DNA of 64,000 nucleotides from a phage. Positions 3,573-26,066 of this stretch are shown here, one piece after another. The DNA is taken from NCBI GenBank assembly GCA_024572335.1, contig GCA_024572335.1_3052.1; one strand, 5' to 3'. Both the position numbers and the translations under genes were made by a program. Position 1 is the stretch's first letter, and each line of letters starts with the position of its first letter. The notes under the pieces are model-generated. The model searched no databases and was not told the origin of the DNA. It saw nothing but the letters and a program-made list of their open reading frames with translations.

Positions 3573-4043
3573 TTAATCATGTTTCCACACCCCATCGGTA
3601 TTTGACCAAAGTCGCTGATTATCTGATCCTCGCCACAGCTTTTTGGTCGGAAGATTTTTCTCATACTTCCCATCAATAATAACATCAACATATTTAAGCA
3701 TTTCTAGTTGTTTAATATCTTCAAACTTATATCCTGTCCACAACCAAATGCTTTTATTGGGATAAAGATTTTTAACTGTTTGAACGATGCAATGAATCAC
3801 GTCTCTGTTATCAGGATAAAGAGGGTCACCTCCGGTTATAGTTAATCCTTCTATATAATCATTATTCAAACATTCAATTAATTGTTCTAGTGTTTCACCA
3901 GTGAATGGAATACCATTTCTAGCATTCCATGTTGATTTATTATAACACCCTTCACATTTATGCAAACAACCTGTAACGAAAAGAACGGTCCTGCAGCCAG
4001 GACCATTAACAAAATCGCAAGGATAAAATCTATCATAATTCAT
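3573..4043 (-). CDS. nrdG: anaerobic ribonucleotide reductase activating protein (radical SAM)
   Basis: 156 aa; CxxxCxxC cluster motif (CLHKCEGC); ATGA overlap with nrdD stop. Confidence 0.9.
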   Translation of the reverse strand: MNYDRFYPCDFVNGPGCRTVLFVTGCLHKCEGCYNKSTWNARNGIPFTGETLEQLIECLNNDYIEGLTITGGDPLYPDNRDVIHCIVQTVKNLYPNKSIWLWTGYKFEDIKQLEMLKYVDVIIDGKYEKNLPTKKLWRGSDNQRLWSNTDGVWKHD

Positions 4044-5857
4044 TGGTGCTTAACCCTATGCATGATTTCTTTATTTTTGCCGAGATTAAATCCGCGTTCG
4101 TTCGGATTTCCAAGATAGCCGCATGTTCTTCTTATTGTGTTCATCTTTTTAGGATCAGTTTCTCCACAGATAGAACAAACAAATCCGTTTTCAGTAGGAG
4201 TCATTTCATGGGTGCTTCCGCATGTAAAACATTTATCTACTGGCATATTAACACCAAAATAATCTAAATGTTGTGCAGCATAATCCCATACAGCCTCAAG
4301 GCCTTTTAGGTTATTTTTCATATCAGGAAGTTCAACATAAGAAATGTGACCACCTGTCGCAATGAAATGATATGGCGCTTCACGAGAAATCTTTTCAAAC
4401 GGAGTAATATTTTCTTCTACTGAAACATGGAAACTGTTAGTGTACCATCCTTTATCGGTAACATCTTTTACACTTCCATATTTTTCTGTATCAAGTTTAC
4501 AGAAGCGATAACAAAGGTTTTCAGCAGGAGTCGAATACAAACTAAAAGCAAACCCAGTTCTTTCAGCCCACTGTTTAAGACGAGCATTCATTTTAGTTAA
4601 AATTTCTTGTCCAATGTCACGACCGACAAGAATATTCAATTCATGAATACCAATGTATCCTAAAGACACTGAACTTCTACCGTTTTTAAATAACTCAATT
4701 ATGTCGTCATCAGGTTTAAGACGAACCCCGAATGCACCTTCTTGGTAAAGAATAGGAGCAACAGTAGCTTTAACTCCTTTTAAGGAACTAATTCTACACA
4801 TCAAAGCTTCAAAACACAAATCCATACGTTCATTGAATAATTCAACAAATTTCTGTTCATTGAACTGTGTTCCAATATAAGAATCCAACGCGATGCGAGG
4901 AAGATTCAGTGTTACAACACCAAGATTATTACGTCCATCAAGAATTTCATTACCAGTCGAATCTTTCCATACGCTCAAGAAACTACGGCAACCCATTGGA
5001 GAAACAGGAATAGATGAACCGGTGATAGCTTTATTATTCTTAACTGAAATAATATCAGGATACATCCTTTTGCTTGCACACTCTAGAGCAAGCTGCTTAA
5101 TATCATAGTTCGGATCGTCTTTATAAAGATTAACGCCTTCTTCAACGAACATAACAAGTTTAGGAAAAATAGGAGTTATCCCATCACGACCAAGACCTTT
5201 AATACGATTTTTCAGAATTGCTTTCTGAATCATTCGTTCAGTCCAGTCAGTTCCCGTACCAAATGTAATTGTTACAAAGGGAGTCTGTCCGTTTGAACTA
5301 AAGAGAGTATTTACTTCATATTCATAAGCTTGGAATGCATCGTATACGTCTTTTTCTGTTTTAGATTGGGCATAATTCAGTGCATCGGCGATTTGCCATT
5401 TTTCTGCGTCCTCGATATGTTTTGCATAGGTGCGTTTAACATAAGGAGAAAGTACTTTATCTACATTCGCAAAAGTCGTTCCGCCGTATTGGTGAGAAGC
5501 AACCTGTGCGGTAATTTGTGCCATAATTGCAGTAGCAACGCCAATTGATTTAGGAGTTTCAATCTGTGCATTACCAAGCTTAAATCCGTTTTCAAGCATT
5601 CCTTTTAAATCTACTAAACAACAATTAGTAAATGGAAGAGCAGGGGAATAATCAATATCATGGAAATGAATAATTCCGCTTTCATGCGCTTTCATAATAA
5701 AAGACGGGACCATATTTTTGGCAATGTGTTTAGACACAATACCAGCCATAAGGTCCCGTTGAGTTGGAAAAACACGAGAATCTTTATTAGCATTCTCGTT
5801 TAAAAGGTCTTTATTAGTTTTATGAATCAATCCTTCAATTTCTTTTTCAATTGTCAT
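4040..5857 (-). CDS. nrdD: anaerobic ribonucleoside-triphosphate reductase (class III, glycyl radical); uninterrupted
   Basis: 605-aa continuous ORF; C-terminal zinc-ribbon CxxC...CxxC and glycyl-radical region; nrdD-nrdG-49 synteny. Confidence 0.93.
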   Translation of the reverse strand: MTIEKEIEGLIHKTNKDLLNENANKDSRVFPTQRDLMAGIVSKHIAKNMVPSFIMKAHESGIIHFHDIDYSPALPFTNCCLVDLKGMLENGFKLGNAQIETPKSIGVATAIMAQITAQVASHQYGGTTFANVDKVLSPYVKRTYAKHIEDAEKWQIADALNYAQSKTEKDVYDAFQAYEYEVNTLFSSNGQTPFVTITFGTGTDWTERMIQKAILKNRIKGLGRDGITPIFPKLVMFVEEGVNLYKDDPNYDIKQLALECASKRMYPDIISVKNNKAITGSSIPVSPMGCRSFLSVWKDSTGNEILDGRNNLGVVTLNLPRIALDSYIGTQFNEQKFVELFNERMDLCFEALMCRISSLKGVKATVAPILYQEGAFGVRLKPDDDIIELFKNGRSSVSLGYIGIHELNILVGRDIGQEILTKMNARLKQWAERTGFAFSLYSTPAENLCYRFCKLDTEKYGSVKDVTDKGWYTNSFHVSVEENITPFEKISREAPYHFIATGGHISYVELPDMKNNLKGLEAVWDYAAQHLDYFGVNMPVDKCFTCGSTHEMTPTENGFVCSICGETDPKKMNTIRRTCGYLGNPNERGFNLGKNKEIMHRVKHQ

Positions 5858-21879: not shown

Positions 21880-22341
21880 TCATTGAGTTTTAATTACTGC
21901 TTTAGAAGCCTTTCCTGGTAAACGACGACTGTTGATAATTGCCATCCTACATTGAAGTGACGGGTCTTTGAACTTCGCATTAGGTTTACAAACTGTAAAT
22001 CCAAGCCAAAGATTTCCATTTGTGATTTCTAAACGTCCAGGACGGTATTCAACCCCATCAATAAAATCCTCGTCAATGTCAGGACGCGGAGGCATACTCA
22101 GGAATTCATTAACTTCTAAAACATGGTCTTTTATTTTATGGAATAATTCAAAAACGTATGTCTCATCAATCTCCCGTTGAATTGCACGATCAAGAAGATG
22201 TTGAGAATATTTTAGATGAAACGATGAGACTCCTTCTGCTTTTGATGCTTCACGAATCTCATTGTTAATTTGACGAAACTCCGACTCAAAGTGACGACGA
22301 AGCTTATTTCGACGGATAAAAACTTCTGTATTGATAGTCAT
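21880..22341 (-). CDS. regB: site-specific endoribonuclease RegB
   Basis: 153 aa; sequence matches recollection of T4 RegB (MTINTEVFIRRNKLRRHFESEF...); early promoter at 22369-22398. Confidence 0.8.
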   Translation of the reverse strand: MTINTEVFIRRNKLRRHFESEFRQINNEIREASKAEGVSSFHLKYSQHLLDRAIQREIDETYVFELFHKIKDHVLEVNEFLSMPPRPDIDEDFIDGVEYRPGRLEITNGNLWLGFTVCKPNAKFKDPSLQCRMAIINSRRLPGKASKAVIKTQ

Positions 22342-22368
22342 GTTATTCTCCTCTTAACTGATAGAAAA

Positions 22369-22398
22369 ATTATACCACAGTCAAGAGGAAAAGTAAAC
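22369..22398 (-). promoter_or_regulatory. early promoter upstream of regB
   Basis: GTTTAC (22393-22398) - 18 bp - TATAAT (22369-22374). Confidence 0.6.
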
Positions 22399-22400
22399 AG

Positions 22401-22679
22401 TTATTCTTTAAATCTAATCAATTTATTCATAGACTTTGAAACTTCTGCACGAACCTCATGTAAGTTTTTAAGCTGTTCAAGACGCTGCTCATAGTAAGCA
22501 ATTTCATCTTCTTCGAGACAGTCCTGTGAATCTTCTTTAAGATAACGTGCATAGTCCTGAAAAGCTTTACGGACTACTTCCTGAAAGTCATCAAGACTTT
22601 GAATTTTCTTAGGAGCGGCAGATACACGACGAGGTGCAGTATAATACTCATAACCAAACCCTGCACTTAATTGAGCCAT
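22401..22679 (-). CDS. hypothetical helical protein (92 aa from MAQLSAG)
   Basis: probable start at internal ATG abutting upstream ORF stop. Confidence 0.4.
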
Positions 22680-22981
22680 TAGTATTTTTCCTCTGGTTGG
22701 AACACTGCACGACAAGCCCACATACTGGCTTCTTTGAGTTTCGTTTTAGCAATAGTTAACTGATCGAGGCTTTCAGCATAATTCTTCGCGAGTTCATAGT
22801 CTTCACAGCTATTAAATGCTTCCCAAAATTCATCGTATAAAGCATCAAAGATAAGTCCTAAACGAACTTCAGCGTCTTTGATAGCATTCACTTTACCGAT
22901 TTTCTCTTCAGTATGCGGCTTATAACTTTTAATGTCTTCAATCATATTTGACTTCCTCACCAGTACATAAATCATATTCAA
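22679..22981 (-). CDS. hypothetical protein (88-100 aa)
   Basis: ORF; true start may be MIEDIK at 22945. Confidence 0.4.
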
Positions 22982-23159
22982 CTAAACGAATAGGTTCATG
23001 AATGCCATATCCTTGAACAGAAATTTCTGTCGTAGGATAAATTCCATCAATATCACCCATATTCCAGGCTTCGTTAAATTGCTGTTCGCCTGAATTACTA
23101 AACCACTCGGCGAAAGCATTTAGCACATCTTTAGAACCTTCAATAATTATCTTTGCCAT
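22938..23159 (-). CDS. hypothetical protein (73 aa)
   Basis: ORF, ATGA-type overlap with the GrcA-like gene. Confidence 0.4.
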   Translation of the reverse strand: MAKIIIEGSKDVLNAFAEWFSNSGEQQFNEAWNMGDIDGIYPTTEISVQGYGIHEPIRLVEYDLCTGEEVKYD

Positions 23160-23521
23160 TACAAACTCTCAGTAAAGGTACGAGCGATAACGTCGCGCTG
23201 CTGTTCCGGAGTCAGAGAGTTAAAGCGAACTGCATATCCGGATACACGGATGGTCAGCTGCGGATATTTTTCCGGATGCTTAACTGCATCTTCCAGAGTT
23301 TCGCGACGCAGAACGTTAACGTTCAGGTGTTGACCACCTTCAATTTTAACTGTAGGCTGTTGCTCAATTTCAATTTCACGGGCATGCAAACCGTAGAAAA
23401 TTTCTGGGTCTACAAAAGAGTCCTCTTTAAAGGTTTTGGAGACAATAATTCGTGCTTGAATACCATCTTCAAAATAAATAGTACCTTTATGTGTGCCTTC
23501 AAGAATTTGATATGCTTTCAT
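23159..23521 (-). CDS. autonomous glycyl radical cofactor (GrcA/YfiD-like)
   Basis: C-terminal ~60 aa [60 protein letters not shown] carries the RVSGY glycyl-radical signature, as in E. coli GrcA. Confidence 0.85.
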
Positions 23522-23528
23522 ATAAACC

Positions 23529-23855
23529 TCAATTAGAAAATAAATTTATCCAAGATTGTTCTTTAATTAAAAATGGCTCAGAATCATATGCCATTAAACT
23601 CTGTGTGATTAGTCCTTTAAAAGGCCCATCAATAAATTCCATGGTAAAATATGGAATTTTATTCATTAGCCGTGCATTAGGAGCAGTACATAAAACTCTG
23701 CATCCTTTGAATACGCCTTTTTGTAATTTGTATTGCTTAGGATAAAATTCGCTTAAAATGTTATTTTTTGCCAAAATTTCAAAATGATTCACCAATTTAT
23801 TTTTAATAGTTTTTGGCGAAAAATAAAGATATTCGAAAAGCTGAGTGTCTGTCAT
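23529..23855 (-). CDS. hypothetical protein (about 108 aa)
   Basis: probable start at MMTDTQ, abutting the upstream stop. Confidence 0.4.
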
Positions 23856-24394
23856 CATTGCATTCCAATCACAAAAAATTGAGGACGAGTAATACCACCA
23901 ATGCAACATTTACTATTACAGCAGTAGTGTACAGTGTCAATATGGACACTATAAATCTTATCCATATCAGGAGATTTGACAGGCTCATCAATTATATACA
24001 AAATTCGCGAAAGCGATAAACCTCTGAACTTGCTTCCTTTATTACCAATAAAACTGCGCACAGAATCAGTAAATAAACGAAAACGTATATCATCATTAGA
24101 ATAACGCGAAAATTCCTTTTTAATGTTATTTGCAGAAATTTTAGCGTAAGCTGAAGTATTAGAAAGAACAATAACTGTTCCGCCATCATACAGCCAATTA
24201 GCAGCAAAGTTAGTCACAGCAATTGATTTACCAGATTGACGTCCACCGTCTAGTCGAAGTGTGCAATACTGCTTAAATAATTCTTCAAATGGCGGGATAT
24301 ATTCGTTTTTACAAATTTCTTCTACTCTAGCATCAGAATGGTGTGTAAAAGCATTCATCAGGGATAGATAAGGACCAGTTAAAAATGTTCTCAT
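23855..24394 (-). CDS. stand-alone P-loop ATPase resembling the terminase large-subunit ATPase core
   Basis: Walker A LDGGRQSGKS and Walker B ILYIIDEP about 90 aa apart, compare gp17 in this window (SRQLGKT ... MIYIDECAF); ATG 24392-24394 (complement). Confidence 0.5.
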   Translation of the reverse strand: MRTFLTGPYLSLMNAFTHHSDARVEEICKNEYIPPFEELFKQYCTLRLDGGRQSGKSIAVTNFAANWLYDGGTVIVLSNTSAYAKISANNIKKEFSRYSNDDIRFRLFTDSVRSFIGNKGSKFRGLSLSRILYIIDEPVKSPDMDKIYSVHIDTVHYCCNSKCCIGGITRPQFFVIGMQ

Positions 24395-24535
24395 TTTATT
24401 CTCTCTAGGTTTGGGCCATTCCGTGGCGCATGAATTGTCCATTTCTGTATTTACCCATTACCGCACTTGGGCTCGACCTTATTACAGGTTGGCGGGAATC
24501 CCTCATAGAATCATGAGGTCCAGTTTGTTCCCATA

Positions 24536-25009
24536 TTATTTGAACGATTTAACGTACTGAATAGAACCCTTACTATTCACAAAGGCAATTTTACCATTTT
24601 TATTATACATGGTAGCAGTACGCTGATAACCATAGGTTTGTTTACCAGATTGATAACCAACTAATGCAAAATTATCTTCACCCATTTTATTCTGTTTAGC
24701 GCGAATGCGTTCATGACCATGTGCCATAAGAACCTTAGCATCACCAGTTGCAATGGATCGACGAGTTTTTTCATCTTCAACTGCATTAACAAAGTCGTCA
24801 AATGAATCAAATTTAGCATGAGATTTATTATACAATTTTCCATCTACTGCATAATTATATCCCTGTACATCCATCTCAACTTCTGTACCATCATCCAATA
24901 CAGCAGTAATTTTTTGACCTTTTTTAAATTTCAAAAGATCAGTAAAAGATTCAGCAATAATTTGAGAATTAATAGCTGCTTCAGTGATAAATTCTTGATA
25001 TGTTTTCAT
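24536..25009 (-). CDS. internal-protein-like head protein with capsid targeting sequence
   Basis: N-terminus MKTYQEFITE|A matches the T4 IP leader MKTYQEFIAE ending at a gp21 cleavage site; early promoter 25064-25093. Confidence 0.7.
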   Translation of the reverse strand: MKTYQEFITEAAINSQIIAESFTDLLKFKKGQKITAVLDDGTEVEMDVQGYNYAVDGKLYNKSHAKFDSFDDFVNAVEDEKTRRSIATGDAKVLMAHGHERIRAKQNKMGEDNFALVGYQSGKQTYGYQRTATMYNKNGKIAFVNSKGSIQYVKSFK

Positions 25010-25063
25010 GGGTTTCCTTTAAATATTTTAATTAGTAATTTGTCTCTTCAAGCAACTGTGAAT

Positions 25064-25093
25064 ATACTATCACAATTCTAGGAGAAAGTAAAC
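25064..25093 (-). promoter_or_regulatory. early promoter upstream of the IP-like gene
   Basis: GTTTAC (25088-25093) - 18 bp - TAGTAT (25064-25069). Confidence 0.5.
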
Positions 25094-25097
25094 AACT

Positions 25098-26066
<969 letters not shown>

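Follow-up and report, generated by a model that had tools for sequence, protein, structure and literature searches.

Host-identical DNA inside the T4-type phage gene vs.6 points to copying of its glycyl-radical domain from enterobacterial grcA

The T-even phage gene vs.6 encodes an autonomous glycyl-radical spare part, the radical domain of which has very probably been overwritten by host grcA DNA at least twice, and recently. Allele comparisons point to E. coli as the donor for Tequatrovirus and Mosigvirus and to K. pneumoniae as the donor for Jiaodavirus. The gene was analysed in a window of 64,000 nucleotides of phage DNA (assembly GCA_024572335.1, contig GCA_024572335.1_3052.1). Neither the gene nor the biochemistry of its product is new; what we consider a worthwhile addition is a host-identical, host-tracking tract of 171 nt inside it. 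The literature searched, including PMC2993671, contains no account of such a tract at the nucleotide level, although most subscription journals were out of reach and a prior mention is possible.

The vs.6 locus

The vs.6 coding sequence, the orthologue of T4 vs.6/Y06I, is an ATG-to-TAA open reading frame of 120 aa on the minus strand (23159..23521). A Shine-Dalgarno sequence, GAGG (23527..23530, minus), is read from the sequence 7 nt upstream and is overlapped by the TGA stop (23529..23531) of the ORF at the vs.7 position (23529..23909, minus). At the other end, the vs.6 TAA and the ATG of a 73-aa ORF at the vs.5 position (22938..23159, minus) overlap as TAATG. None of the products encoded at the vs.5, vs.7 and vs.8 positions has a Pfam match. 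A scan of positions 22300..25200 for promoter and terminator consensus sequences gave no signals above shuffled expectation, so that vs.6 is probably co-transcribed and translationally coupled with its neighbours, within a run of small co-oriented genes that are probably co-translated.

The 3.6 kb around vs.6 are 97-99% identical to many Tequatrovirus (T4-type) genomes, in which the gene is annotated as vs.6 or 'autonomous glycyl radical cofactor'. The order vs.8-vs.7-vs.6-vs.5...regB, with e and Ip4 upstream and regB downstream, is kept in hundreds of Tequatrovirus genomes, and the window is that of a Tequatrovirus. It is collinear with the T4 nrdG-nrdD ... tk-vs-regB-vs.x-Ip4-e region, and the T4-type lysozyme gene e is intact at its expected place (25098..25592, minus). 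The vs.7 position holds an ORF of up to 126 aa, which shares 55 nt with the end of the vs.8-position ORF (23855..24442, minus); vs.7 is annotated as 102-109 aa in related phages, and its true start is therefore probably an internal ATG. The anaerobic ribonucleotide reductase NrdD (4040..5857, minus; Pfam NRDD, 2.2e-171, and Gly_radical) and its activase NrdG (3573..4043, minus; Fer4_12 and Radical_SAM) are encoded in the same window, as an earlier note on this DNA, made without database searches, had stated.

A phage subfamily of GrcA-like proteins

The same note had read the product of vs.6 as a homologue of GrcA/YfiD, and profile searches bore this out. Pfam Gly_radical (PF01228) matches with E=2.5e-18 and 67 bits (cut-off 22.2), and the glycyl-radical fingerprint RVSGYAVRF, of the RVxG[FWY] type, occupies residues 92-100 (23222..23248, minus), with Gly95 as the radical glycine. 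Of the PDB entries, E. coli GrcA/YfiD (6OWR) scores best (E=9e-42, residues 22-120), ahead of the PflB C-terminus (E=5e-26; residues 58-120 on PflB 697-759), while PHROG 1209 matches with E=5.7e-63. The top NCBIfam model is the GrcA equivalog TIGR04365, which aligns residues 20-120 to model positions 25-126. At 154.9 bits, the protein falls short of the curated cut-off of 170 because the N-terminal half has diverged. The vs.6 protein is, thus, a member of a phage subfamily and not a strict bacterial GrcA equivalog. With its own Shine-Dalgarno sequence, ATG and stop, it is a stand-alone protein of about 14 kDa, and its alignment to PflB is confined to the last ~63 residues.

The near-identity to E. 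coli GrcA claimed for the C-terminal 60 residues proved to be complete, with residues 61-120 matching GrcA 68-127 at 60 of 60 positions. The N-terminal half is divergent, also as claimed: 15 of its 59 aligned codons give the same residue as GrcA (about 25% amino acid identity). HMMs can nevertheless align this half from residue ~20 onwards (ARIIVSK versus ARCIVAK), which argues that the whole of vs.6 is a diverged grcA homologue and was not assembled from unrelated parts.

The gene and its function are already known from T4, and the description of vs.6 as conserved biology stands, given its syntenic position in hundreds of Tequatrovirus genomes. Between this protein and T4 Y06I, 119 of 120 residues agree (99.2%; Q54 here and P54 in T4), and many Tequatrovirus proteins are 100% identical to it. 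Wagner et al. (2001), as cited in PMC8683613, showed in vitro that PFL activase acts on E. coli YfiD as well as on T4 Y06I and that both proteins restore O2-fragmented PFL. Later work on YfiD shows that residues 61-127 share the fold of PflB 693-759 and that binding to cPFL and efficient installation of the radical depend on the disordered residues 1-60 (PMC8683613). The repair of PFL by a spare module, which had been proposed from the letters of the window, is in this sense established in vitro for Y06I, and the 99% identity suggests that the protein encoded here would likewise be activated by PflA and rescue O2-cleaved PFL.

A 2006 comparison of six T4-like genomes noted the gene as conserved in every one (PMC1524935), and we detected vs.6 homologues in 1589 phage records, T5-like and jumbo phages included. 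Its presence in all T4-like genera marks vs.6 as an old gene, so that a recent host origin is limited to the internal 171-nt tract; the earlier suggestion of recent capture from the host, therefore, holds for this tract and fails for the gene as a whole. The same gene is variously annotated as hypothetical protein, pyruvate formate-lyase, 2-ketobutyrate formate-lyase, acetyltransferase-related protein, ribonucleotide reductase subunit or GrcA.

A host-identical tract with sharp edges inside the gene

At the nucleotide level, vs.6 falls into three parts. Codons 1-60 (gene nt 1-180; 23342..23521, minus) are of phage lineage and 40.7% identical to E. coli grcA, which is the random level; this part corresponds to the disordered, cPFL-binding half of YfiD. 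Codons 61-117 (EGGQHLNV...RTFT; gene nt 181-351; 23171..23341, minus), corresponding to GrcA residues 68-124, are identical to the K-12-type grcA allele at 170 of 171 positions, far more than the motif-level similarity that would have spoken against a host origin. The sole difference is GGT -> GGA at the codon of the radical glycine (23237..23239, minus). At the 3' edge of the host tract, the last three codons (gene nt 352-360) and the stop, together 23159..23170 (minus), are phage-type again: GAG AGT TTG and TAA here and GAG AGT CTA in Mosigvirus and Slopekvirus, versus GAA AGC CTG in E. coli.

Codon alignment shows both edges to be sharp and to lie inside the ORF. The 5' edge is identical in three genera, and the converted marker GGT/GGC lies 6 nt from the 5' end of the phage-host homology; on the 3' side, the resemblance to the E. 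coli locus does not extend past the stop codon. All 5426 complete E. coli genomes contain a grcA that matches gene nt 179-363 at 97.8%, and the T4 tract agrees with the major E. coli allele at 171 of 171 positions (5156 genomes at at least 99%). At gene nt 217-219, the present phage has CGC, as do about 1249 E. coli genomes, and T4 has CGT. Compared with T4 vs.6, the gene shows six synonymous differences and one non-synonymous difference, among them this K-12-type CGC and a private GGA at the radical glycine codon.

Residue 54 (23360..23362), which lies six codons ahead of the tract, is hypervariable (Q/P/T/R/H) among otherwise near-identical phages (loci L002, L083-L088 and L163-L178), and phage OES_C-2 has a two-codon deletion adjoining it (EIE--TQP). 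This variability may reflect a tolerant linker or the scar of junction-proximal recombination.

The composition of the tract is host-like and foreign to the phage. Its GC content is 50.3%, against 35.6+/-4.2% for 171-nt coding windows, none of which (0 of 1295) is as high; the window as a whole has 36% GC, and the N-terminal part of the gene, with 34% GC and a GC3 of 0.23, is typical of it. Codon usage, for which a comparison had been proposed, agrees: GC3 rises to 0.44 in the tract, and all five of its leucine codons are CTG, a codon that accounts for 5.6% of leucine codons in the window.

Two other bacterial genes, pflB and tdcE, were considered as donors and rejected, with 73-80% nucleotide identity. 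E. coli grcA has diverged as much in its N-terminal as in its C-terminal part from the grcA of Escherichia sp., Citrobacter and Salmonella, which indicates that the DNA moved from host to phage and led us to reject the opposite direction. Several 'viral' contigs in the collection that proved to be bacterial, carrying pflB (L152-L162) or grcA (L111), were set aside.

Phages of different hosts carry the alleles of those hosts

Jiaodavirus, a sister genus of Klebsiella phages, carries a tract with the same 5' boundary, in which 150-152 of 171 positions agree with E. coli and the protein sequence includes the variant LLDAVEH. In a scan of 80 species, K. pneumoniae not among them, the best matches to the Jiaodavirus tract reached 87-90%. 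A metagenome scan with a Jiaodavirus 26-mer then returned 27 bacterial grcA loci of about 57% GC, and the protein of the one checked (L179) is exactly GRCA_KLEP7, of the K. pneumoniae complex. The Jiaodavirus tracts are 165-167/171 identical to this K. pneumoniae grcA; their first 126-156 nt are identical to it, and their 3' end is phage-type.

To separate the two alleles, we used a diagnostic set of 20 sites that distinguish E. coli from K. pneumoniae grcA. All 22 Tequatrovirus and Mosigvirus genes have the E. coli state at 18-20 of these sites (19 in the present phage), and Jiaodavirus has the K. pneumoniae state at 16-18 of the 20, a count subject to ascertainment bias because the K. pneumoniae loci had been found with a Jiaodavirus-derived 26-mer. 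Outside the search 26-mer, 12 of 15 diagnostic sites in Jiaodavirus are still Klebsiella-type. Searches free of this conditioning gave the same picture. The K. pneumoniae tract as query found 106 Klebsiella phage records at 95-98%, with Escherichia phages at 86-89%; for the E. coli tract, identity is at least 95% in 643 Escherichia-type phage records and 86-89% in Klebsiella phages.

The E. coli allele is retained in Tequatroviruses whose isolation host was Hafnia, Citrobacter or Yersinia, which suggests that conversion is not fast relative to host switching and is slow relative to the laboratory host range.

Two bacterial records met during these searches deserve mention. A full-length enterobacterial grcA lies on the 275-kb plasmid unnamed4 of Klebsiella sp. 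WOUb02 (L025), and an enterobacterial-type grcA occurs in an assembly labelled 'Vagococcus sp. WN89Y' (L033), a Firmicute, where it is probably the product of contamination or mislabelling.

Continuing exchange or discrete captures

On balance, we tend to the view that the radical domain of vs.6 is re-copied, in an ongoing manner, from the chromosomal grcA of the current enterobacterial host by a process akin to marker rescue. A comparison of 13 Tequatrovirus with 8 Mosigvirus loci bears on this point. Fixed or nearly fixed differences between the two genera are dense in vs.7 and vs.5, and 12 of them fall in nt 1-180 of vs.6, the last at nt 170; from nt 171 to nt 357 there are no fixed differences, and they resume at nt 358/360. 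At third positions, nine fixed differences in 60 codons compare with none in 57, for which our own arithmetic gives p roughly 1e-4 under equal synonymous divergence. The variation within the tract is all of low frequency in these loci, and the CGC/CGT polymorphism at nt 219 is common to both phage genera and to E. coli. Among the phage records, 377 of about 645 have a tract within one base of the E. coli allele, while only 40 of 546 have an N-terminal part within one base of that of T4.

A single discrete capture in each lineage, followed by spread from phage to phage with no further donation by the host, is the strongest competitor, although we judge it rather unlikely. Under this scenario, the tract would be homogeneous because the stretch most similar between co-infecting phages is a recombination hotspot. 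Phage-phage recombination is real at this locus: the vs.6 of Escherichia phage Pu-Krd-SF6 (L175, 1501..1863), which combines Mosigvirus-type variants at nt 57-117 of the N-terminal part with a locus that is otherwise Tequatrovirus-like, looks like a recombinant between the two genera, with the exchange inside the gene. The E. coli allele kept by Tequatroviruses from hosts other than E. coli would also be expected if the host no longer donates. Even so, at least two host-to-phage events, from E. coli and from Klebsiella, are needed, and in 21 of 21 genomes the tract is directly flanked on either side by fixed differences between the genera. The T4 tract is, moreover, an allele of living E. coli, and the host polymorphism CGC/CGT recurs in both genera. 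Simple phage-to-phage spread is further weakened by a report that RB69, a Mosigvirus, is unable to recombine with T4 and the other RB phages (PMC6024577).

Host-to-phage conversion, for which the evidence is comparative, would most likely proceed by homologous, marker-rescue-like recombination of vs.6 with fragments of the host chromosome during infection. T4 readily performs marker rescue from cloned homologous DNA. The conserved C-terminal domain would supply the homology, and the diverged N-terminal half would limit the extent of conversion. Two features sit less easily with this route. With the converted marker only 6 nt from the end of the homology, a classical double crossover would have no evident place to anchor on the 5' side, and T4 degrades cytosine-containing host DNA, so that such transfers should be rare.

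A role in infection

During infection, host PflA may install the radical on Gly95, as shown for Y06I/YfiD, after which the structured C-terminal domain could dock into PflB that has been cleaved by O2 at Gly734 and restore the conversion of pyruvate to acetyl-CoA and formate. Host expression is shut off by T4, and damaged PflB or GrcA could then not be replaced by the cell; a part supplied by the phage would keep fermentative energy metabolism running in micro-aerobic or anaerobic infection. PFL repair in infection fits the phage's own NrdD/NrdG. In this way, vs.6 may benefit the phage in vivo.

A main role other than PFL repair, either by acting as a decoy, whether titrating host PflA or occupying PflB, or in nucleotide metabolism with NrdD/NrdG, seems improbable to us, but several observations would accommodate it. 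Nucleotide metabolism was proposed on the basis of the common Gly_radical domain (PMC1524935); T4-like genera have conserved the phage-specific N-terminal half, which is unlike that of GrcA, the corresponding half of YfiD controls binding and activation (PMC8683613), and the papers searched describe no in vivo phage phenotype. The radical domain, however, copies grcA and not nrdD, being identical in amino acid sequence to GrcA and 79% identical to the PflB C-terminus, and the in vitro restoration of O2-fragmented PFL by T4 Y06I, as cited in PMC8683613, speaks for repair.

Identity without recent exchange

An ancient shared origin or capture, with the nucleotide identity maintained by purifying selection on the protein and at the codon or RNA level, is very improbable. 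The 60 C-terminal residues are extremely conserved across Enterobacterales, and grcA is highly expressed with strong codon bias, which would be the basis for such an explanation. Yet Citrobacter, Mangrovibacter, Serratia, Pectobacterium and others share the same 61 residues with only 82-92% nucleotide identity to E. coli, and Slopekvirus encodes these residues with 100% amino acid identity but with 29 synonymous differences, its core agreeing at 144 of 171 nt; identity of the protein, thus, does not force identity of the DNA. The tract also uses codons that are rare in the phage, such as the CTG codon noted above, and phages of different hosts track host-specific alleles, so this explanation is effectively refuted. 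An assembly or contamination artefact, in which host reads were merged into the phage contig, would account for the bare identity to host DNA and nothing more, and it is excluded by the same in-frame mosaic with the same boundaries in >600 independently sequenced phage genomes, including T4, T2 and RB69, and by the purification and study of the T4 protein (PMC8683613).

Relation to known systems

The closest known system is T4 Y06I, which is the same gene at the same locus with an E. coli-identical tract. E. coli GrcA/YfiD is, like the vs.6 product, a small autonomous protein, and it has been shown to share its activase and target with the T4 orthologue; the N-terminal half of the phage protein is, however, 7 residues shorter, and vs.6 lies in an operon of a virulent phage and does not adjoin ung. 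The C-terminal domain of PflB (1H16 and others) has the same fold and motif, at about 79% amino acid identity, but the vs.6 protein is without the catalytic barrel and without Cys418/419.

Homologous glycyl-radical proteins of 120-127 aa are encoded by the GrcA-like genes of T5-like phages (Demerecviridae), Slopekvirus and Karamvirus, which, unlike vs.6, have no host-identical tract and show 70-83% nucleotide identity to any sampled bacterium even where the residues are identical. The T5-like siphoviruses (L125-L150) encode versions of 121-127 aa; identity is about 52% over the whole protein and about 79% in the radical domain, and the DNA, at 70-73% nucleotide identity, lacks a host-identical tract.

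The psbA/psbD mosaics of cyanophages are another case in which auxiliary metabolic genes of T4-like phages exchange segments with the host homologue and track the host. In comparison with them, the tract described here is short, identical to a living host allele and contained within a 363-nt gene, and it is found in the best-studied virulent coliphage, a destroyer of host DNA.

Significance

A practical consequence concerns detection. A 2026 paper selects grcA as a PCR/qPCR marker gene for Straboviridae (PMC12845203), and because half of its sequence is also that of the chromosomal grcA of E. coli, primers located in this half would amplify host DNA.

The tract offers a clean natural marker for the frequency at which DNA is copied from the host by a strictly lytic, host-DNA-degrading phage. 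The mosaic structure suggests that the radical domain must match host PflB and PflA exactly and that the N-terminal half retained by the phage does something phage-specific. If the radical domain is indeed re-copied from the current host, the spare part would always match the resident PflB and PflA while the phage N-terminal half is retained, and T4 would provide a natural, ongoing case of gene conversion from a host to a virulent phage despite the degradation of host DNA.
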